From NCBI GenBank assembly GCA_963844295.1, contig CAWJNR010000004.1, forward strand, positions 281,306 to 345,305: a DNA stretch of 64,000 nt, read 5' to 3'. A model generated the notes under the pieces. That model was not told the DNA's origin. It saw only the letters and a list, made by a program, of their open reading frames with translations, and made no database searches. This stretch comes from an uncultured Actinomycetota bacterium (GTDB lineage: Bacteria; Actinomycetota; Actinomycetes; Mycobacteriales; SCTD01). The position numbers and the translations under genes were made by a program. Shown here piece after piece: positions 6,434 to 45,800 of the stretch (positions within the stretch are counted from its first letter, which is position 1; every line of letters starts with the position of its first letter).

Positions 6434-9400
6434 GCGAGCTGCAGGGGTTCGACCCGCCCCCGCCGCACGAGCAGCCCCCGGCCCGGCACGACCTCGCCGC
6501 CCGTCGTGCGGGACAGCCGCACCCCCAGCAGGTCCCCGTCGCCGGCGGACTGCGGCGACAGCAGCAGCCCGGTGCGCGCCTTGCGCAGGTCGACCACGAA
6601 GCCGCGGTAGCCGGTGACCAGCTCCTCGGTCGTCCCGGCGGCGACGACGACGGTCCCGGCGTCGCGCGCCTCCCGCACAGCCTTCTCGAGGACGTGCGAC
6701 AGGCCGCTGTCGACGAGCAGCTCGGCGTCGTCGACCAGCAGCAGGCACCGCCCGTCCCCCACCTGCGCCTGCAGCTCGGCGGAGGCGTCGCGGGAGGTCA
6801 CGCAGCCGGGCAGCGCGCGCAGCGGGCTGGGGCGCGGGGCGACGGCGACGACCCGCAGGCCGCTGCGGGCCAGGCCGGCGGCGACGGTCAGCAGCGCGCC
6901 GCTGCGGCCGGAGCCGGCCGGTCCGCCGACCAGGAAGCCGGGCAGCGCGTCGGCCAGGTCGACCTCGACCGGGTCGAGCTCGTCGCCGCCGACGCCCAGC
7001 ACGACGCCGAGCGGCGCGGCCGCGGGCGGCAGGTCGGCCGCCCGCACGAGGGTCGGCAGCAGCTCGACGCGGCGCGGGCGGTGCAGGACCGGCGCGGGGG
7101 TGCGGGCGGCGTGCGCCGCGACCGCCGCAGCCTGCGCCGGGCCGGTCGGGTCGGGGGCGAGCAGCGCCACCTGCGCGACCAGGGGCGCGCCCGTCATCGA
7201 CCAGCCGCGTCCGGCCGGCAGGTGCTCGGGCACCAGCCGGCTGGGCAGGCCGGCGGCCGGGTAGTCGCCGCGGTCGGCCATGCGCAGCAGCAGCGTGTCC
7301 TCCACCATCGAGGAGATGCGCCCGACCAGCCCGCTGCGGTCGGCGCTGAGCGCGACGTGCAGCCCGACCGCCGGCCCCTCGCGGAGCAGCCGGTAGCAGA
7401 GCTCCACCAGGCGTCCGGCGTCGACGTCCTGGAAGGCGGTGAGGAAGGCCTCCCACCGGTCGAGCAGCAGGACCAGGTGGGGCAGCCGGTCGGCGGGCAT
7501 CGCGGCGGCGCGCTGCTCGGCGAGGTCCGCCAGCCCGGTCTCGGACAGCAGCGCCTGGCGGCGGCCGACCTCCGCGGCCAGCCACGTGAGCAGCCGGTCC
7601 ACCCGCTCCGGCTGGTCGCGCGCGACGACGGCGCCGGCGTGCGGGAGTGCGGCCAGCGGGCCGAGACCGCCGCCGCCGGGGTCGATCGCGTAGAGGTGCA
7701 GGTCGTCCGGGGAGGACGCAGTGGCGAGCGCGACCGCCAGGGTGCGGAGTGCCGTCGTCCGGCCCGACCGGGGTGAGCCGAGCACCATGAGGTGGGTCGA
7801 CCGGTCGAGGTCGAGCACCAGCGGACGCCGGGCCTGCTCGCCCGGCACGTCCACGACGCCGTACGCCGCGGGCGGCACCCGGCCGGGCGTGCCTGCCAGC
7901 GGGTCCTCCACCGGCGGCAGGTCGGCCGTGACGACGAGGGAGGGCAGCGGGGGGAGCCACGGCGAGCGCTGCGGCGGCAGGCCGAGACGGGCAGCCGCGC
8001 CGACGCAGGCGTCGACCAGCAGGGACAGGTCGGTGACGTCCTGGTCGCCCTCGGCGCCGGGCTGCAGGCGGGGCAGCGGGTCGCCCAGCTCGGCGGCGGG
8101 CAGCAGCTCCACCACCGGTTCCGCGTCGCGCGCGACGACCGAGGGCCGCCGTCCGCCGACCCGGCCGGCCTGGAAGGCGGTGAGGTCGGCGTGGCCGGTG
8201 CGGGCGTACGCGCGGCCTGGCGTGGTCCGGCTGATGGTCGCGGCCAGCGGGGAGTCGAGGACGTCGCGCGACTCGGCGTCGCGGGTGACCGCCAGGCACA
8301 GCCGCAGGTTGGTGTTGGCGCGGATGTCGGCCGAGACGACGCCCTCGGGGCGCTGCGTCGCGAGCACGAGGTGGACGCCCAGCGACCGGCCGCGCATGGC
8401 GATGCCGACCAGGCCGCCGACGAAGTCCGGGAGCTCCTCGACCAGCGAGGCGAACTCGTCGACCACGATCACCAGGCGCGGCAGCGGTGCGCGGGGGCCG
8501 CCCGGGGTGCCGACGAGGCGGCGGTGGTCCTCGACGTCCTTGGCGCCCACCTGCTGCAGCACCGCCTCGCGGCGCGAGAGCTCCGCGCCGAGGGACGCGA
8601 GCGCGCGCTCGACCAGCGTCCCGTCCAGGTCGGTCACCAGGCCCACGGTGTGCGGCAGGCGCTCGCAGGGGCCGAACGCCGCGCCGCCCTTGTAGTCGAC
8701 CAGCACGAAGGTCAGCTCGTCCGGCCGGTTCGTCAGCGCCAGCGAGGCGAGCAGCGTCTGCAGCAGCTCGCTCTTGCCCGATCCGGTCGTGCCGGCGACC
8801 AGCGCGTGCGGACCGTCGCGGGACAGGTCGACGGCGAAGGCGCCGTCCGGTCCCCGGCCGAGGACGGCGGTGGTCGAGCGGCCGGGGGAGGCCCAGCGCT
8901 CCACGACCGCCGCCGCGTCGTCGCTGCTCCCGGTCAGCGGCAGCTCGACGACCTCGGTCCACCGGAGGGAGGCGGGCAGCCCCTCCTCGCCGCCGCGGTC
9001 ACGGCTGTCGTCGCGCAGCGGCGCCAGCGCCCGGGCGACCGCGGCGGCCCAGGAGCGCGGGGCGAGGTCGGCGGTGGCCCCGCTCAGGTCCGGGCGTCCG
9101 GTGACCCTGACCTGCAGCCGACCGCCCGGCCCGGTCAGCACGGCGGTCGCGCCGCACTCCTCCGGGAGCAGCCGCGGGTCGTGGTCGAGGCACACGGCGT
9201 GGACGCCCACGGCCGGTCCGTCCGCGGAGCAGGGCCGCCAGCCCGGGGACCGTGCGCAGCGCCCGGGCGCCGTCGACGACGACGAGGACCGGCTTGTCGT
9301 CGGTGCGGGCGCTGCGGCTCAGGCCGGTGCGCTCGGCCCGGCGGGCCTCGACGAGCGCCGGTGAGCTCGCCGACGCGCAGCGCCGCCTGCGCCGGGCCGA

Positions 9401-35632: not shown

Positions 35633-35753
35633 CATGCCGCCTCGTCGGCTCGTCATCCACAGGCTGTGACCTCGTGGTGCCGCTGCGCGCCCGCCGGGTC
35701 CAGGTTCAGCCAGTCGTCCGGCTGCGGGCGCACGGGACAGGACGGGAGCGCGG

Positions 35754-36185
35754 GTGGTCGGCGTCGTCGGCGGACCGGCCAGCACCGGCTACGACCACGT
35801 CGAGGCCGAGGTCCGGGAACTGGTCCGCCGTCGGGGGCTCGACCCGATCGAGGACCGGGTCGCGATGCGCCGACTGGTCGACGACGTGGTCAACGACTAC
35901 GACGAGCGGGCGCTGACGTCGTCGCTGCCGCCGCTGCCCGACGCCCGCTCGGCCGCCCGCGCCGTCTACGACGCCGTCGCCGGCTTCGGCCCGTTGCAGC
36001 GCCACCTCGACGACCCGACGGTCGAGGAGATCTGGATCAACGAGCCGGGGCGCGTCTTCGTCGCCCGACGTGGTCGTTCCGAGCTCACCACGACGATCCT
36101 GAACGACGGCCAGGTCCGCGACCTCGTCGAGAAGATGCTGAAGACCACCGGCCGACGGGTCGACCTGTCGACGCCGTTCGCATAG
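35754..36185 (+). pseudogene. cpaF: CpaF/TadA-family pilus-assembly (type II/IV secretion) ATPase, 5-prime fragment of 142 codons
   Basis: GFGPLQRHLDDPTVEEIWINEPGRVFVARRGRSELTTTILNDGQVRDLVEKMLKTTGRRVDLSTPF is the conserved N-terminal domain. It stops abruptly at TAG 36183-36185, where family members continue VDAxLPDGSRL. That continuation is found at 40614. Confidence 0.8.
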
Positions 36186-36453
36186 CCGAGCCAACATGCG
36201 CAAGGAACGCGCTTGATCCTCGGCTGACGCGCTCTCGGCGCGAAGCGTCCTTCCCGACCGGCATCGGGTGCTCACCGACCCGAGGCGCCGGCCGGGTAGA
36301 CGCCGCTCACTACGACCGCTCGGCCGTTCAGCGGAGCCAGCAGTGCTGCCGACGCACGGCAGGACCCGCTACAGACGCGACGTACCGAACGATTCACCCG
36401 CGGTCACCCAGCGAACACGCCAGGCAACATGACTAGCCCTGGGCGTTTAGCGC

Positions 36454-36474
36454 GTTGAGAGAATCTCAACGCCG
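36454..36474. promoter_or_regulatory. perfect 9-bp inverted repeat GCGTTGAGA-gaa-TCTCAACGC upstream of the surface-protein gene
   Basis: Read directly. It lies in the 465-nt non-coding left arm of the insertion, about 180 nt upstream of the GTG at 36651. It could be an operator or a hairpin. Confidence 0.4.
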
Positions 36475-36650
36475 ACTGGTCCGGATGGCTCATGTGCACC
36501 GGATGTCCGATCTCTAACTTCGGACGGGACAGACCGTGACGCAGTGATCCGGGACCATTACTTGGTCGCCTTGGCCCCGGGGAGCGAGTGGCGAACCCGA
36601 CGCGGTTCAGCAAGGGGCGGTGACGCCTCTTCAGCCCCTCAGGAGACCTC

Positions 36651-38869
36651 GTGCGTCGTACAGGCAAGGCAGTCGGAGTAGTCGCGGCGGCAACGTCGCT
36701 GGTCATGATCGGTGGCGGGCTTGCTCTTCGCCGACACGTTGCAGGACTCCATCGAAGACTCGGGCACGGGGGTGGCGCTGGTCGCCGGGTCATCCACCAG
36801 CGGTAGCGCCACGATCCGTGTCGTCGGCAACAATGCCGCAGGTGACCCGGACCCCGGCTGCAACATCGACGCTGGCGAAAACCCGCTCAGACTTGACGTT
36901 GTGACGCCGGAGGGTGTCACGGCCAACCCTGACCCCTTGTCGATCACAGCTTGTGGTGAAGACTTCACAGTCACCTTCACCGCCAGCGCCAGCGCGGTCA
37001 GTGGCCACGCAACCGTCCGGGTCCTGTCCGGGCCGGCCGGCGGTGGCACATACGTCAACCAGGTCGACATCCCCATCACAGTGACGCAGGCCAACGCGAA
37101 GCCCGTCGTGTCCGTGAACGGGGTCACTCCCGGCACCAGCTACGTCCTTGGGGCGGTGCCGACCGCTACCTGCTCTGTCACGGACGCCGAGACGGCGAGC
37201 ATCCCGTCCTTCACCGCTGCGCTGAGCGGCGAGCTGACCGCCGGGCTCGGCACTCAGACTGCGACGTGCGACTACACCGACGCTGGCGGCCTGAAGGCCG
37301 ACACCAAGACGGTCACCTACTCCATCGTCGCGCCGCCGAACACCAAGCCGACGGTCGCCGTGCGCGGGGTCACCGACGGCGCGAGCTACGAGATCGGTGC
37401 TGTCCCGGCCGCGACCTGCGACGTCACCGACGCTGAGGACGGCAACAGCAGCAAGGCAGCTGTTCTGAGCGGCGTCCTGTCACACGGTCTGGGCAGCCAG
37501 ACCGCTACGTGTGACTACACCGACGCGGGCGGCCTGCAGGCGGACACCCAGTCGGACACGTACACCGTCGTCGACACCGGCAAGCCCACGATCACGCACA
37601 CCCTGACGCCGGCTGCCGGACCGAACGCGGCTGGTTGGTACAACGAAGACGTCACCGTGGACTTCACCTGCGACGACGAAGGCGGCTCCGGCATCGCCTC
37701 CTGCGTGGGTGACACGACCTTGGGAGACGGTGCGAACCAGTCCGTCGACTGGGACGGCCACCGACTGGGCGGGCAACACCGCCACCGACGAGGTGTCCGG
37801 CATCAACGTCGACACCAGCGCCCCCAACGCGCCGACCGCAGTGCTGAGCCCGGCCCCGAACGGCGCCGGCTGGAACAACACCAACCTGGTCGTCGACTTC
37901 ACCGCCGTCGGTGACAACGGCCCCAGCGGAGTCGCCAGCTGCACCGCCGACGTTCCGGTCAGCACCGAGACGGCGAGTCAGACCGTCAGCGGCACCTGCA
38001 CCGACAACGCCGGCAACGTCAGCGCCGCCACCGAGGTGACCGTCAAGCTGGACAAGACCGGCCCCGTCATCAGCAACACGGTTACGGTTACGGGCGACGA
38101 GGGCGCCAACGGCTGGTACACCTCCAACGTGGAGGTCATCTTCACCGCGATCGACGCGCTGTCGGGGCTGACCGCCGCCAGCAAGTCGGTGACCAGCAGT
38201 GGACAGGGCGCCGCCGTGCAGGTTCAGAGCCCAGCGTTCACCGACCTCGCCGACAACACCACCGACGCTGGGGACGTCACCAAGTCCTACAAGATCGACC
38301 TGACGAACCCCACCGCTGCCTTCGACAGCACCATCGGCTCGGTGTACTTCGGGTCCGTCCCGACTGCCCCGACCTGCACCGCCACTGATGGGCAGTCCGG
38401 CCCGGCCGGTTGCGAGGTGGCTGGCTACAACACCACCGTCGGCACGCACACCCTCACGGCTACGGCCACGGACAACGCCGGCCGCACCAGCACCACGCAG
38501 CAGACGTACACCGTTAAGGCGTGGACGCTGAGCGGCTTTTACCAGCCGGTCGACATGGGCGGTGTCTGGAACACCGTCAAGGGCGGCAGCACGGTCCCGC
38601 TGAAGTTCGAGATCTTCAGCGACAAGACCGAGCTCACCACCACCGGCGCAGTCAAGACCTTCACCCAGAAGGCCATCGCCTGCCCGAACGCCGCAGCAGT
38701 GGACGAGATCGAGATCGTGAGCACCGGAGGCACCACCCTGCGCTATGACGCCACGGGTGGCCAGTTCATCCAGAACTGGGCAACTCCCCGGACGCCTGGC
38801 GCCTGCTACGTCGTCACGATGACCGCCCTGGACGGTTCGCAGATCACGGCGAACTTCAAGCTCAAGTAG
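36651..38869 (+). pseudogene. secreted multi-domain Ig-like / PxKF-domain surface protein, two apparent frameshifts
   Basis: GGAG RBS plus GTG gives signal peptide VRRTGKAVGVVAAATSLVMIGG in frame 3. The body is in frame 1 from about 36712 and in frame 2 from about 37745. Contains two tandem ~80-aa repeats, three GW(Y/N)xxxVxVxF..D..SG modules, and a C-terminal WTLSGFYQPVDM...STVPLKFEIF...LRYD..GQFIQNW (P-x-K-F motif). Confidence 0.7.
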
Positions 38870-38887
38870 GAACAGCGCGGAACGATG

Positions 38888-38913
38888 CCCCACCCGGCAC
38901 CTGCCGGGTGGGG
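38888..38913 (+). terminator. 12-bp GC-rich hairpin downstream of the surface-protein gene
   Basis: CCCCACCCGGCA-CC-TGCCGGGTGGGG read directly. It starts 19 nt after the TAG stop. Confidence 0.6.
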
Positions 38914-38981
38914 CCTCGGCCTTCCATCGAACCGGCCGCAGCTGCCCTGGACGGACAGCTACCAGCAGCTAGGAGCTCGGC

Positions 38982-39464
38982 TTGAATCGCGACGGCGAGA
39001 CAGTGCTGGTGGCGTCGGACATGCCAGAGCAGCGTGCGTGCACACCGTCGCTCGACTCGTCGGGTGAGGATGGCCTTGCGTTGAGCGAGGCGGCGCAGCT
39101 GTACGACGTGTCACTGCGCTCGCTTCGCCGGCTGATCACGCTCGGGGGGATCCCAGCCCACAAGATCAAGGGCGCGCGAGGTCAGGAATGGCGCGTCACG
39201 GCCGCCACGTTGGACGCCGCTGGCTACGCCCCTCGCCTCATCGACCTCACCCAGGCGGAGGACCCGAACAGCTCGGAGGTCAGGCGGCTGACGCAGGCGC
39301 TCGTCGCTGCCCAGGCGCGCAACGCCGAGCTCGATGGTCGACTCGGCTACGCCCTTCTGACCGTGGGGCGACTGCGTGGACGACTTCGAGACGCGGGCAT
39401 CAACCCCGACGAGCTATTCGGCGCCGACCTTGAGGCGGAGGAAGCCCCACACGGGGAGCGTTGA
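38982..39464 (+). CDS. helix-turn-helix (MerR/excisionase-type) DNA-binding protein with coiled-coil tail
   Basis: LSEAAQLYDVSLRSLRRLITLGGIPAHKIKGARGQEWRV is the HTH_17/excisionase signature. The C-terminal part is helical (RRLTQALVAAQARNAELDGRLG). Confidence 0.65.
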   Translation: MNRDGETVLVASDMPEQRACTPSLDSSGEDGLALSEAAQLYDVSLRSLRRLITLGGIPAHKIKGARGQEWRVTAATLDAAGYAPRLIDLTQAEDPNSSEVRRLTQALVAAQARNAELDGRLGYALLTVGRLRGRLRDAGINPDELFGADLEAEEAPHGER

Positions 39465-39511
39465 TCCGCACCTGCGACGTCCAGGCTCGCGTGACGTTCG
39501 ACGGTCCTGTC

Positions 39512-39770
39512 ATGGGCGAAGCTGACGCGAGGGAGCCACGGTTCATGCGCCTGTCCGACGTCGCCGGCGAGCTCGACGGGAGCATGAGCCAGGTCCAGGC
39601 ACTGGTGCGCTCAGGCGATCTACCTGCCATCAAGATCGGCGCGGGGCTTCTGGCGGGTGGAGCGGGCCGTGCTAGAGGAGTGGATCGCGCGCATCTACGC
39701 CAGCACACGGGCTGCCATGGTGGCCGAGGAGTTGAGGGTGCCTCCAGAGGTTGGCTTGAACGGTCTTTAG
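39512..39770 (+). pseudogene. excisionase-family HTH protein, one apparent frameshift
   Basis: RFMRLSDVAGELDGSMSQVQALVRSGDLPAIKIG in frame 2 continues as GRGFWRVERAVLEEWIARIYA in frame 3. The shift is at a G-run at about 39640-39648; stop at 39768-39770. Confidence 0.6.
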
Positions 39771-39983
39771 CTCAATGCTGTTGGCTTCGCTCGCCTCGCA
39801 CCGAGTCGCCGTCAGCACCTCGGTGGGACCGTCGACGCGGCTGCCTCCTGTGGCTACGGTCGCGGGTGGCCAGGTGAGGGAGGGCCGCATGACGACGGGG
39901 ACGGTGTACCCACATCCACGCTTGCAGGAGGTCCTGCTCGCGGCCTCCGGCCGTGCCCGAACTTCAAAGGCCCCTGCGCGGAG

Positions 39984-40613
39984 ATGCGTTGGACGCCAGA
40001 GGCAGGTCACGCCCCGCGTGGCTTCGCGGGCGCTACCGGCGAGCTCGCGGACGTCCGGCTGGTCCTGGTGTGTGCGGAGCCGGGAGACCCTCAGGCATGG
40101 GAGCGCTACGACGGACGCTCGGGTGAGGACCTCCTGCGGGCGACCCACGACTTTACGTACGCCTCGTTCCGCGACGGTACTGACCAGTTCCACCGGAACG
40201 TGCGTCTGATCCTCGACATGTGCTTCCCGGGTGGGGCCTGTGATGAGCAACTAGAGCAAGCCTGGATCACGGAGTCCGTCCTGTGCTCAGCTCGCGTTGA
40301 GAGCGGTTCCGTCTCCGCCGCCGCAGCCAGGACCTGCAGGTCGACCTACCTGCAACGCGAACTTGATCTGCTCCCGAACGCGGTCGTTGTCGCCCTCGGG
40401 GCAAAGGCGCGCGACCGCATGAGAGGGATCAAGGGGGAAGTAGTGGACGCCGTTGCGGCTGCGCCGCCAGGCTGCAACCGACGGGACGCTCGCGCCTCCT
40501 GGAAGGCAGCGGCCGCTCGCGTCCGGGACACAGCGTCGGGGGCGGGCGTCTCCTGCACCGTGGCCTCGGCTGCCACCGTGAACGGCACCGACGCACCCGT
40601 TGGCATCGGTCCA
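39984..40613 (+). CDS. uracil-DNA-glycosylase-superfamily-like protein (uncharacterised subfamily)
   Basis: GHAPRGFAGATGELADVRLVLVCAEPGDP resembles UDG motif A (GE-PG). LPNAVVVALGAKA and AAAPPGCN fall at the motif-B position. A possible longer N-terminus from the ATG at 39889 would need another frameshift. The ORF runs without a stop into the cpaF fragment at 40614. Confidence 0.45.
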
Positions 40614-40670
40614 CCCTTCGTCGACGCGATGCTGCCCGACGGCTCGCGGCTGCACGTCGTGATTCCCGAC
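40614..40670 (+). pseudogene. cpaF: 19-codon internal fragment of cpaF/tadA (PFVDAMLPDGSRLHVVIPD)
   Basis: This is the exact continuation expected after ...DLSTPF at 36179. Similarity to the family ends after VIPD, where the sequence becomes LASSVRGPGPGETVNLF-stop instead of the conserved I-x-R..W.VNIRKF. Confidence 0.6.
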
Positions 40671-40740
40671 CTTGCATCCAGCGTGCGTGGCCCCGGTCCC
40701 GGCGAGACCGTAAACCTGTTCTGACCTGGCCTTTCGCACC

Positions 40741-40780
40741 TGGACCGCGCTGGACCGTTCTGGACCGTTCTGGACCGTCG
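40741..40780 (+). repeat. four tandem 10-bp iterons TGGACCGNNC (CTGGACCG core)
   Basis: tggaccgcgc tggaccgttc tggaccgttc tggaccgtcg read directly. They lie about 150 nt upstream of the integrase start and about 70 nt inside the junction at 40671. Confidence 0.9.
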
Positions 40781-40928
40781 TCGGGCTCTGACGGCCCACA
40801 GACGGCCCAGGGACGATCTTCCTGGGCGGCGCCGGAAGCTGTGCCGGTGAGGCGCTGGATCCACAGCTGCGCCGGTTGCTCTAGCAACGCCGTCCGGGTC
40901 GGGTGAGGTGGGGCCGGAGGCGGGCCTC

Positions 40929-42101
40929 ATGGGCACGATCGAAGATCGTTGGTGGAGCAGTCAGGTGGGCGGGCGGGTGCCGGGGGAGCGGTCCGGACGG
41001 GGCTTGCGGTGGCGGGCCCGCTACCGCGACGGTGAGGGCCGGCATCGCTCCCGGTCGTTCGCCCGCAGGCCGATGCGGTGCGCTTCCTGACGTGGGTGCA
41101 GGCCGATCTGCTGCGCGGCACCTACATCGATCCGGGCCGGTCCCGCACTGCCCTGTCGGTGTACGCCGAGCTGTGGCTGGCCTCGTTGTCGGTCCGGCCG
41201 TCGACCCGCCGCACCCACGACAGCAACCTGCGGACCTGGATCCTGCCGGCACTCGGCGCCCGCACCCTTGGCCTCGCTCACCCCGACCGATGCCCGCGGG
41301 CTGGTGCGGCAGCTGGGGGAGGGCTCGCGCCATCGACGGCTCATCACGTGCATGGGCTGCTGGCCTCGATCTTGAGCTTGACGGTGGAGGACGGCTACCT
41401 GTCGCGCAACCCGGCCGCGCGGACCGGACCCGGCCGACCACGGCGGGTGCAGGTCCGGCCGTTCACCGTCGGCAGGTGCAGGCGCTGATCGACAGCACTC
41501 CGGAGCGGTTCCGGGTGGCGGTGCTGCTGGGTGCCGGCTGCGGCCTGCGGATCGGCGAGGTGCTCGGCCTGAGCCGTCGATGCGGTCGACTTGCACGCGG
41601 GTCAGTTGGCGGTCAGTCGGCAGCTGCAGGCGCTGTCCGGTCAGGGCCTGGTGCTGCGGCCACCGAAGAGCCACAGCAGTGTCCGCACGGTGCCGCTGCC
41701 CGACAGCGTCGCCACCGCGGTCGCCGAGCACCTGCGCCGATGGCCACCGGCCGCGGGTGCGGGGGCGGGGGAGCAGGACCTGCTTGCTGCGGACAGTCAG
41801 CGGCCGGCCGATGTGGCCACGCACGTTCCACAGCCGCATCTGGCGCACCACCACGGACACCGCCGGGTTGCCGGGGGTGCGGTTCCATCAGCTGCGGCAC
41901 TTCTACGCCAGCGCCCTGATCGGGGCCGGGGAGAGCGTCAAGACCGTCCAGGCTGCCCTCGGCCACGCCAGCGCCGTCGAGACCCTGCAGGTGTACGTCG
42001 GACTGTGGTCCGACAACGACCAACGGACCCGCGCCGCTATCGACGCACTTCGACTCGGCGCGCCCGCCAGCGCCACGACATCGCACCCCGCGGGGACGTG
42101 A
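40929..42101 (+). pseudogene. tyrosine-type site-specific integrase, about six frame disruptions
   Basis: MGTIEDRWW...GRGLRWRARYRDGEGRHRSRSF, AVRFLTWVQADLLRGTYIDP, RFRVAVLLGAGCGLRIGEVLGL, LRPPKSHSSVRTVPLP, and FHQLRHFYASALIGAGESVKTVQAALGHASAVETLQVY (R..H-x-x-R..Y catalytic region). These are spread over three frames, with shifts near 41070, 41280, 41320, 41472, 41575 and 41808. Confidence 0.85.
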
Positions 42102-42272
42102 GCCCCGCTGCGCAGCCTCGTTCGGCCAACCGGCGAAGTCGCTTCTTCGAAGACGGAGCCAGCGTCCGGAACTGCCGACGAGAAGCGGGCGGTCCACTGC
42201 GCCGGGCGAACGGCGTCGTGTCGTCACGCAGAGGCAACCACCGCGTCACGTCCCTCGACGAGCATCGGCGGC

Positions 42273-45284: not shown

Positions 45285-45800
45285 ATTTTTTTGTGTAGAT
45301 GACTTGGTAGATAGAGATGGGAGGCAAAGGGATCAGAAAGAGAGAGGTCTAAAGGATCTGAGAGCAGATAGACAACGACGTAGCGCTCTGGAGAAAAAGG
45401 AAATGGAAGAACAACGAGTAAAAGTAAGTGTAACTGGACGAGACTACTGCAAGGTAAGCAACAACGAGCGAGTGGTGTCACAGGATGAGGTGATCGAGAC
45501 GGCGTAAGTGCGGACGGCAGACGGGAAGTGCTGGGCTGCGCGACGGTGACAGCGAGACGAGGCGTTCTGGACGAGTCCTGCGCGACACGAGACGCGGTCT
45601 GGACGGCGTACAACTGGACAACAGCGACGCGCAACGCGGCCTGGCGAATGCCAACGGGGCCGTCTCCAAGGCAGCAGCTGGCAGCGCTGCCGGGTCCACA
45701 CAAGCGCAACGACCTGGCCAAGGTCAGCAAGAGCCACGACAGAGATGGTCGCCGCGACGATAAGGAGGTTGCCGAGTTCGCGCAGGGTCCCGACACCCGC
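45285..45800 (+). other. non-coding purine-rich, T-poor, lower-GC tract with CTGGAC repeats
   Basis: Hand count for 45301-45540: A84 C35 G87 T34, i.e. 71 percent purine and 51 percent GC. For 45541-45660: A27 C36 G45 T12. It begins after a T7 run. CTGGAC occurs at 45434, 45567, 45599 and 45614. There is an imperfect tandem duplication CTGCGCGAC..CGAGACG..TCTGGACG at 45535-45610. Confidence 0.7.

Follow-up and report, generated by a model that had tools for sequence, protein, structure and literature searches.

The stretch of DNA considered here (the window, 64,000 nucleotides) corresponds to positions 281306-345305 of contig C4 in a high-GC actinobacterial assembly of 3.57 Mb and 4 contigs (G000:C4:281306-345305). 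Within it lies an insert of 4,433 bp, hereafter X (36181-40613), which begins CATAGCCGAGCCAACATGCG, terminates ...CGCACCCGTTGGCATCGGTCCA and interrupts a fragment of cpaF, the gene of a Tad/CpaF ATPase. The 5' part of this fragment (35651-36180) terminates ...GTCGACG CCGTTCG, the last seven bases (36174-36180) closing the left flank of X. The cpaF frame picks up again at 40614 with CCCTTCG TCGACGCGATGCTG..., the first seven bases (40614-40620) opening the right flank, and extends only to 40670. X carries, in this order, a non-coding leader, a cyclic di-GMP (c-di-GMP)-II riboswitch aptamer, a surface-protein gene, two helix-turn-helix genes (HTH#1 and HTH#2) and a gene of the uracil-DNA glycosylase (UDG) superfamily. 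The original prediction, made from the letters alone, had announced a 4.44-kb insertion bracketed by these two heptamers, with the same four genes and with neither transposase nor integrase. Boundaries and heptamers were found at exactly these positions, domain searches returned the same cargo, and no transposase, integrase or resolvase signature was detected in X with Pfam, NCBIfam, PADLOC or PHROGs, the curated libraries giving only excisionase-type matches.

X is a genuine insertion, since two independent empty sites exist, and filled and empty sites could be aligned as the original prediction had proposed. The first is a full-length paralogous cpaF of the same assembly (C3:19515-20094), which is continuous across the site (...GACGCCGTTCGTCGACGCG...). 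Window 35651-36180 aligns with C3:19515-20044 (90% nucleotide identity; 97.7% amino acid identity over 133 residues) and 40614-40670 with C3:20038-20094 (94.7% identity for the right piece), and the two alignments overlap by exactly 7 bases. The second is found in another genus of the same family (G022:C90), where the cpaF 5' fragment, the break, the arm repeats, an integrase gene and mgsA are present without the insert, at 77-80% identity to the window; the left piece is uninterrupted there at 7642-8082, and the fragment reads ...CAGC CCCTTCG TCGACGCG... The GC content of X is 67.6%, as against 71-72% for its flanks. Two random 7-mers of the window match at 6 or more of 7 positions in 0.43% of cases, and the flanking 6/7 repeat is thereby unlikely by chance.

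Our searches uncovered a conserved dyad-symmetric site of ~55 nt, here called S, that reads GCACCCGTTGGCATCGCTCCA-CCCTTCG-CATAGCCGAGCCAACATGCGCAAG: a right-end arm (R-arm), a 7-nt core and a left-end arm (L-arm). Its imperfect dyad is GCAC-CC-GTTGGC-A-TCG ... CGA-GCCAAC-AT-GCGC, around a 16-nt centre TCCA CCCTTCG CATAG. Complete S was found in five places on four metagenome contigs (L026, L044, L140 twice, and L141; sources JGI 3300061560, ENA ERZ27252461, GCA_030155325.1 and one Logan run). An nhmmer profile was built from six S sequences and used to search ~5.5 Mb. The complete sites scored E = 4e-18 to 5e-12, the left end of X matched at E = 3e-8 over model positions 27-63 only, and the right end at E = 7e-5 over model positions 2-33 only. 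The two half-matches are complementary, and their overlap is the 7-nt core only. The dyad is retained in 93% of cells, as against 24-36% for slid controls, and S has no match in Rfam.

The similarity between the two ends of X had been read in the original prediction as candidate terminal inverted repeats (TIRs) with a CCNTTCG duplication. GCCAAC does lie, as claimed, at an identical offset from each junction, as GCCAAC/GTTGGC, and these sequences are real; what does not stand is their reading as transposon ends, since GCCAAC, CCGA and TGCG are the dyad arms of S and the heptamer is its crossover core. Against controls, the inverted similarity alone is marginal: 5% of random pairs do as well as its 10 of 20 same-offset matches, 5-20% equal its local score, and 0.7-2% have a 6-mer at identical offset. 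That the similarity is real follows from the match of both ends to the S profile. The termini do recur in other contexts (L026, L044, L138, L140 and L141), while a second copy of the whole cassette was not found. Neither X nor its ends were detected a second time in the genome by blastn, fuzzy matching or nhmmer, nor were they in 61 relatives or in phage and plasmid collections. A single IMG/VR match (L139) was discarded: it lies within phage tail genes, the rest of S is absent, and its 19 specified bases are about the chance expectation.

The two ends of X have the form of attL- and attR-type hybrids between S and cpaF. The L-arm of the window is identical or nearly so to that in L026, L140 and L141. 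Its R-arm matches L138:721-747 at 26 of 27 nt and has near matches in L026, L044, L136 and L141. On L138, an HTH#1 homologue (79% nucleotide identity to the window) is followed ~75 nt on by this 27-mer, including CCCTTCG, and then by unrelated DNA. With slashes at the breaks, the window junctions read ...GACG CCG/TTCG/CATAGCC... (attL) and ...GGTCCA CCC TTCG/TCGAC... (attR), that of L141 ...GGCAC GAG/TTCG/CACAGCC... and that of L138 ...CTCCA CCCTTCG(CA)/CGTGAC... All four junctions, from three sources, break within TTCG, at the centre of the dyad. The R-arm side always retains the CCC of S, and the L-arm side retains target bases (CCG in the window, GAG in L141); the G/C difference between the two heptamers of the window would follow directly if the target read CCG like its C3 paralogue. 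Read from these sequences, the heptamer is a crossover core common to site and target and not a duplication by staggered cutting. The left target flanks of the window and L141 also have CGACCTGT in common at the same distance from TTCG (12 of 20 positions match). This match, which includes an 8-nt run, has a chance of ~1e-3 by hand estimate, and blastn extends across it; the G022 allele fits less well (5/8). This likeness hints at half-site recognition.

S also marks cassette boundaries in other DNA. On L140, two S in direct orientation enclose a counterpart by homology of window 36417-36510, a weak c-di-GMP-II-type match, a 1360-aa surface-protein gene and an HTH#1 gene, which is the architecture of X. 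On L141, an L-arm-only junction comes first, and a 1040-aa surface-protein gene and an HTH#1 gene follow; a complete S is next, at whose ATG a GerE-type gene begins. Cassettes in arrays with S between them are known from just these two short contigs. In X, unlike in their cassettes, the R-arm follows HTH#1 only after HTH#2 and the UDG-like gene, and no S separates these genes. L136 has an R-arm at its extreme end, and breaks of contigs at or near S are what repetition of S in the donor genomes would produce. In the cassettes of L044, L138, L140 and L141, 70-100 nt separate the R-arm from the HTH#1 gene, whose product is a plausible S-binding accessory or directionality factor. The features are listed in Table 1.

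Table 1. Features of the insert, its target and the site S (positions without a contig name are those of the window).
Feature	Position	Strand	Description
cpaF' left piece	35651..36173	+	5' part of the orphan Tad/CpaF ATPase gene fragment; target DNA
attL-type hybrid	36174..36210	+	core CCGTTCG (target version), then S L-arm CATAGCCGAGCCAACATGCGCAAG
Non-coding leader	36211..36527	+	two hairpins, ~36183-36227 and ~36253-36297; no coding signal
c-di-GMP-II riboswitch aptamer	36528..36611	+	upstream of the surface-protein gene; Rfam RF01786
Surface protein	36651..38869	+	multi-domain Ig-like, C-terminal PxKF; ~740 codons; three frames in the assembly
HTH#1	38982..39464	+	160 aa; HTH_17 (excisionase/BldC/MerR-like), E = 1e-7, then a 43-residue helix
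HTH#2	39545..39770	+	short HTH_17 gene, E = 0.008; frame broken in the assembly
UDG-superfamily gene	39889..40547	+	4-Cys motif; one frame change near 39945
attR-type hybrid	40589..40620	+	S R-arm CGCACCCGTTGGCATCGGTCCA, then core CCCTTCG (S version)
cpaF' right piece	40621..40670	+	target DNA
Complete S	L026:869-915		CACCTGTTGGCATCGCTCCA CCCTTCG CATAGCCGAGCCAACATG; 270 nt upstream of a UDG homologue 80% identical to that of the window
Complete S	L044:4042-4088		70 nt past an HTH#1 homologue
Complete S	L140:5389-5445
Complete S, diverged copy	L140:172-226
Complete S	L141:4219-4280
Half-site junction	L141:116-148		unrelated flank
Half-site junction	L138:719-750		unrelated flank

Both parental forms are at hand, S in L026, L044, L140 and L141 and continuous cpaF in C3 and G022, and the window has the two hybrids that they would give. 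Such a pattern, with two parents and two products, a crossover interval that does not vary and no duplication, is that of conservative site-specific recombination. We therefore favor, with a probability of about 0.75, a model where X is a recombinase-less cassette that was joined, as a circle carrying S, to a secondary site in the cpaF fragment by a site-specific recombinase supplied in trans. Two direct copies of S would recombine to give a circle with one S; a conservative recombinase, presumably of the tyrosine or the serine class, would then join this S to the secondary site by a crossover within TTCG at the dyad centre. S would thereby be split into attL (cpaF, CCG-TTCG, L-arm) and attR (R-arm, CCC-TTCG, cpaF). 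The suggestion of the original prediction that X is a non-autonomous element moved in trans agrees with such a discrete insertion lacking a recombinase. X is probably trapped in this genome, since both of its sites are hybrid and the genome has neither an intact S nor an obvious enzyme left; the S profile found no other S in the 3.57 Mb.

Several points weigh against this model. No recombinase is linked to S, no more than five complete sites and four junctions have come to light, and an intact S was found neither in 78 genomes of the family nor in 400 of the class. The S-bearing contigs other than the window are short (1.1-6.3 kb) and metagenomic, at a GC content of 66-69%. One complete site (L140_b) has CCCGCCG where the others have CCCTTCG. 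Covariation in the dyad is not significant, the variation being too low: the single compensatory pair is equalled in 80 of 500 shuffles. Frame errors are also abundant in the assembly, and a feature of one base, for example the G/C difference between the cores, might in principle be an error as well. Frame changes are numerous genome-wide and fall at differing places in paralogues (for example window 40903-42104 and 63687-64816; C3:19558-20574). The genes in several frames include both integrase paralogues, the surface-protein gene, the UDG-like gene and the C3 cpaF. The assembly, with a completeness of 65.6% by marker genes, looks like an indel-rich long-read assembly, and the frame breaks are probably assembly indels; apparent pseudogenes are therefore unreliable in it, and we drew no conclusions on pseudogenes.

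By analogy, a central crossover in a ~50-bp dyad would suit a large serine integrase. No resolvase-type or serine recombinase domain was detectable in the assembly, which has four tyrosine-recombinase loci (two Xer-like and the two C4 integrases) and one IS110-type (DEDD) gene, at C3:279839. An evident candidate for the enzyme is the tyrosine integrase encoded 290 bp to the right of X (40903-42104); the cpaF fragment and four phased CTGGACCG repeats would then serve, as in an integron, as an attI-like platform that is empty in G022 and filled by an S-bearing circle in G000. The integrase gene, the direct repeats (40740-40778), the insertion point 120-160 bp off and the cassette are arranged much like intI, attI and a cassette. 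The platform of G022 has no cassette, and the recombinases detectable in this genome include four tyrosine-type loci and none of the resolvase type. We nevertheless consider it rather unlikely. The integrase has its own junction (40670), and this junction and the arm repeats are unlike S; neither a close relative of the integrase nor the conserved arm block was found in the metagenome collection, and the S-bearing contigs have no integrase. The cassette genes are oriented towards the integrase gene, unlike those of integrons, and a single cassette is present. The adjacency may instead reflect foreign DNA accumulating in dead sequence.

The platform itself is older than X. The right piece of cpaF terminates at the junction with the integrase element, a junction that is conserved in G022. 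The cpaF 3' part was not found adjoining the fragment in G000 or G022, and since neither genome has a matching 3' part beside it, the target is an orphan and presumably non-functional fragment at the integrase-proximal edge of an older element. In the window and in G022 (L041; G022:C90 7642-9483), a cpaF fragment of ~190 codons is fused at the same point, after …CCCGAC, to the arm region and the tyrosine integrase gene. The arm region consists of 10-bp-phased CTGGACCG repeats and a 45-nt block almost invariant between the two genera, and mgsA follows the integrase gene; the four repeats upstream of the integrase of the window are partly conserved in G022. Among 78 family genomes, G022 alone has a further platform of this kind. 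The cpaF fragment of the window is ~95% identical to the resident full-length C3 cpaF, which suggests gene conversion or recent copying. Two other likenesses were discarded: GCCTTTCGCA, beside the arm repeats, is not conserved in G022, and the TTCCCGACC motif at three breakpoints did not stand, the 44.87-kb site aligning with cpaF, and also with the 40.67-kb junction, no better than random. Further right, the window has a purine-rich, T-poor, lower-GC non-coding tract (45285-45800) immediately after a T7 run, between a truncated minus-strand open reading frame (ORF) and an MFS gene.

A non-autonomous DDE-type transposon, that is a mobile insertion cassette with imperfect TIRs and a 7-bp duplication preferring CCNTTCG, would account for the inverted arms of 10-11 nt near both ends, the 6/7 direct repeat and the cargo of whole genes, if the contiguous S were ends of neighboring copies lying against each other. 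This is very unlikely. CCCTTCG follows the R-arm in every context (window, L138, L136 and the complete sites), whereas target bases precede the L-arm; the complete sites keep their two arms at a constant distance, those of X start 4-5 nt in from its tips, and the assembly has no transposase with such ends. Repeat families resembling insertion sequences (IS) were examined as a source of the ends of X and rejected, the families of this genome having different ends. Those of 1.7-1.9 kb, in copies 90-95% identical (C2:361613-363438, 521286-523082, 1344637-1346530, C4:251511-253345; C2:1188776-1190695 and others), have ORFs that resemble DUF222/HNH "13E12-type" proteins and not classical IS transposases. 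Finally, a single illegitimate or microhomology-mediated capture by nonhomologous end joining, S being an ordinary donor promoter or operator cut by chance, would fit the single copy of X, the lack of an enzyme, the promoter-like reading of S and the general frequency of Ku/LigD in Actinobacteria, but is highly improbable given four independent junctions from three sources that break S within the same 4 nt, ends that complement each other exactly as the halves of S and have its core in common, and cassette ends that both lie outside genes.

The cargo of the recombinase-less cassette begins with regulatory sequence. The two leader hairpins, within ~250 nt of non-coding DNA, have fold z-scores of -2.1 and -3.0, and a promoter-proximal block (36417-36510) is 76.6% identical to L140:432-525. 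No hairpins were found at the right end of X, and simple promoter and terminator scans gave nothing. The aptamer matches RF01786 at 59.5 bits (gathering score 53.5; E = 1e-10), and L140 has a weak, sub-threshold c-di-GMP-II-GAG match at the equivalent position. A second aptamer of the same genome (C2:640617-640710) is 89% identical, and c-di-GMP-II riboswitches precede PxKF/Ig-like surface-protein genes in G000 (two copies) and in relatives (G017:C100:33-133). The surface protein has a Big_13 match, a PxKF match (NF038114, E = 5e-36) and internal repeats, and a hairpin separates its gene from HTH#1. From the letters of S, we infer a split leaderless promoter, TTGGCA, 17 nt, TAGCCG, 7 nt and ATG(CGCAAG), to which the R-arm would supply the -35 box and the L-arm both the -10 box and the start codon; recombination may reconstitute or destroy it.

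HTH#1 was modeled with a mean predicted local distance difference test score (pLDDT) of 80 as a BldC/MerR/Xis-like winged helix followed by the 43-residue helix, BldC being the best domain match. It has ~50 homologues (at most 72% identity), nearly all on short contigs, and the species-representative genome collection has none that is close. Seven contigs with a homologue were examined, and in each of them a large Ig/cadherin-like surface-protein gene, either complete or truncated at the contig start, immediately precedes it; because of this arrangement we regard surface protein and HTH#1 as a conserved pair. The pair is present at two loci that are 98% identical (L045 and L046; GCA_030155305.1 and GCA_030155405.1) and diverge ~480 nt past the HTH gene; after that point L045 has a tyrosine integrase (Arm-DNA-bind_4) and, further on, a resolvase fragment. 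S was not detected in either. HTH#2 is a diverged paralogue (~75% nucleotide identity) of a conserved chromosomal HTH_17 gene, and a small gene of this kind is kept in most genomes of the genus, beside a SAF-domain (CpaB-like) gene (L004, L008; G000:C4:275516-275683).

The UDG-like gene has no natural stop, its ORF staying open into the cpaF fragment. Its product matches Pfam UDG weakly (E = 0.002, below the cut-off) and accordingly belongs to a divergent, unnamed family. It fits the UDG superfamily nevertheless, which has an alpha/beta fold with a GEAPG-like motif A and an HPSP-like motif B. An AF2 model from 31 sequences reached a pLDDT of 84, and all top Foldseek/PDB matches are UDGs at a TM score of ~0.45, among them UdgX (6iob), 1ui1 and the family-4 enzymes of Thermus and Thermotoga. 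The motifs AEPGDP, SVLCSA and APPGCN are invariant in the family (AEPGDP and APPGCN in alignment A2), and its four conserved cysteines make an iron-sulfur cluster possible by analogy with family 4. The gene has 353 homologues (best 80%), and its family (L026, L027, L031, L142, L051-L130) is dispersed across many phyla and often lies beside restriction or defense genes (HsdM, HNH_2, a ScoMcrA-like gene, an SLFN-like helicase). The gene is absent from 300 genomes of the order. A conserved HTH#1-HTH#2-UDG module was considered and rejected: none of 80 UDG loci has HTH#1, HTH#2 or the integrase of the window nearby, and the closest UDG homologues stand alone. The original prediction had also allowed for an unrecognised recombination function in the cargo. 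This did not hold up: the UDG-like protein has the fold of a UDG, HTH#1 that of a BldC/MerR-like DNA binder with a helix, and no cryptic recombinase fold was seen in either model.

S can be regarded as a newly recognised att-like site, and a site-specific cassette replaces the transposon reading. There is a chance, which we rate as clearly less than even, that the cassette system is new, the S-flanked cassettes representing an undescribed integron-like system of high-GC Actinobacteria, with S as a split leaderless promoter, cassettes of several genes, circles that are excised and insert at S or at loosely related TTCG sites, a recombinase encoded elsewhere and perhaps the HTH protein of the cassette as architectural or directionality factor. 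A typical cassette of such a system could consist of a c-di-GMP-riboswitch-controlled adhesin and a BldC/Xis-like HTH protein, and others could carry defense-type genes such as the UDG-like one. How small sets of accessory genes spread among actinobacterial chromosomes without the hallmarks of phages, plasmids or IS is poorly understood. S is a concrete site on which recombination can be tested, its parents and products being all in hand and the crossover confined to 4 nt, and its cassettes form a family that carries surface adhesins under c-di-GMP control and defense-island genes. Once identified, the enzyme would give actinobacterial genetics a new site-specific system and explain orphan-looking insertions; if S is indeed a promoter split by recombination, it would be a new link of gene capture to expression.

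Among known systems, large serine integrases use an attP that is an imperfect dyad of ~50 bp with a central crossover, and the circles of IS110/IS1111 have subterminal inverted repeats and a promoter that is split between the ends and rebuilt on joining. S resembles the former in its ~50-bp dyad with central crossover and the latter in its subterminal arms and its putative split promoter. Unlike in these systems, no serine recombinase domain is detectable in G000 and X has no DEDD recombinase, and k-mers shared by the 330-nt leader with target or donor, as sought for bridge-RNA-like guides, are at chance level. Mobile insertion cassettes (MICs), in which IS-derived ends surround passenger genes (PMC4337579, PMC5444012), are like X in having passenger genes only, inverted end similarity and a short direct repeat. 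The likeness is one of form only: a search for a cognate IS gave none, the repeat is the core that site and target have in common, and the ends are joined at fixed spacing in other DNA. The arms of X lie 4-5 nt inside its ends, similar ends are not found elsewhere in the genome, and the right 7-mer is always the CCCTTCG of S.

Cis-mobilisable elements (CIMEs), known with integrative and mobilisable elements (IMEs) from the Streptococcus ICESt literature, are att-flanked remnants of integrative elements without an integrase. X is similar in its att-type flanks, its lack of an integrase, its excisionase-type HTH genes and its integrase-bearing neighbor, and the attL and attR hybrids that flank it trace back to a single attP and a single attB. 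A CIME has its att sites in common with a neighboring integrative and conjugative element, whereas the junction of the neighboring integrase is unrelated to S here, and the S profile found no S at either integrase copy of the contig or elsewhere in the genome. In the donor contigs, moreover, S lies between cassettes in arrays and not at tRNA-type attB sites. The pdif modules of Acinetobacter plasmids and the integrative mobile elements exploiting Xer (IMEX) are moved by the tyrosine recombinase pair of the host. Like them, the S modules have no recombinase and are bounded by short dyad sites. S does not appear to have the 11-6-11 layout of dif, and its break in TTCG falls where the XerC arm would be, not at the border of arm and spacer. 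By eye, TTCGCATAG resembles a XerC arm at 8 of 11 positions of the E. coli dif, and no XerD arm is visible.

The cassettes of integrons and of clusters of attC sites lacking integrases (CALINs; PMC4889954, Cury et al. 2016) are similar in more respects. Like X, they are mobile units, independent of a promoter, without a recombinase of their own and with one recombination site each; they form arrays separated by the site, they move as circles, as we infer for X, and they can be trapped at secondary sites that share few bases with their own. The tyrosine integrase with upstream direct repeats 290 bp from X might be a counterpart of IntI and attI. An attC site (R''-L''...L'-R') has a RYYYAAC...GTTRRRY pair and is crossed over between the G and the TT of GTTRRRY, in its R' box. 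S lacks this pair: it has GTTGGC...GCCAAC, and its crossover is at the dyad centre. An IntI-type integrase is not linked to it, and cassettes of the X type are large (4-5 kb, 2-4 genes), with a regulatory RNA and a regulator of their own. The host phylum differs as well, being Actinobacteria, whose genomes had no complete integrons in the 2016 survey (PMC4889954). S fails the definition of attC and that of TIRs with a target site duplication and does not appear to follow the layout of dif, and the closest analogues of the S cassettes are integron cassettes and CALINs, CIMEs, and pdif modules and IMEX, with MICs alike in form only.

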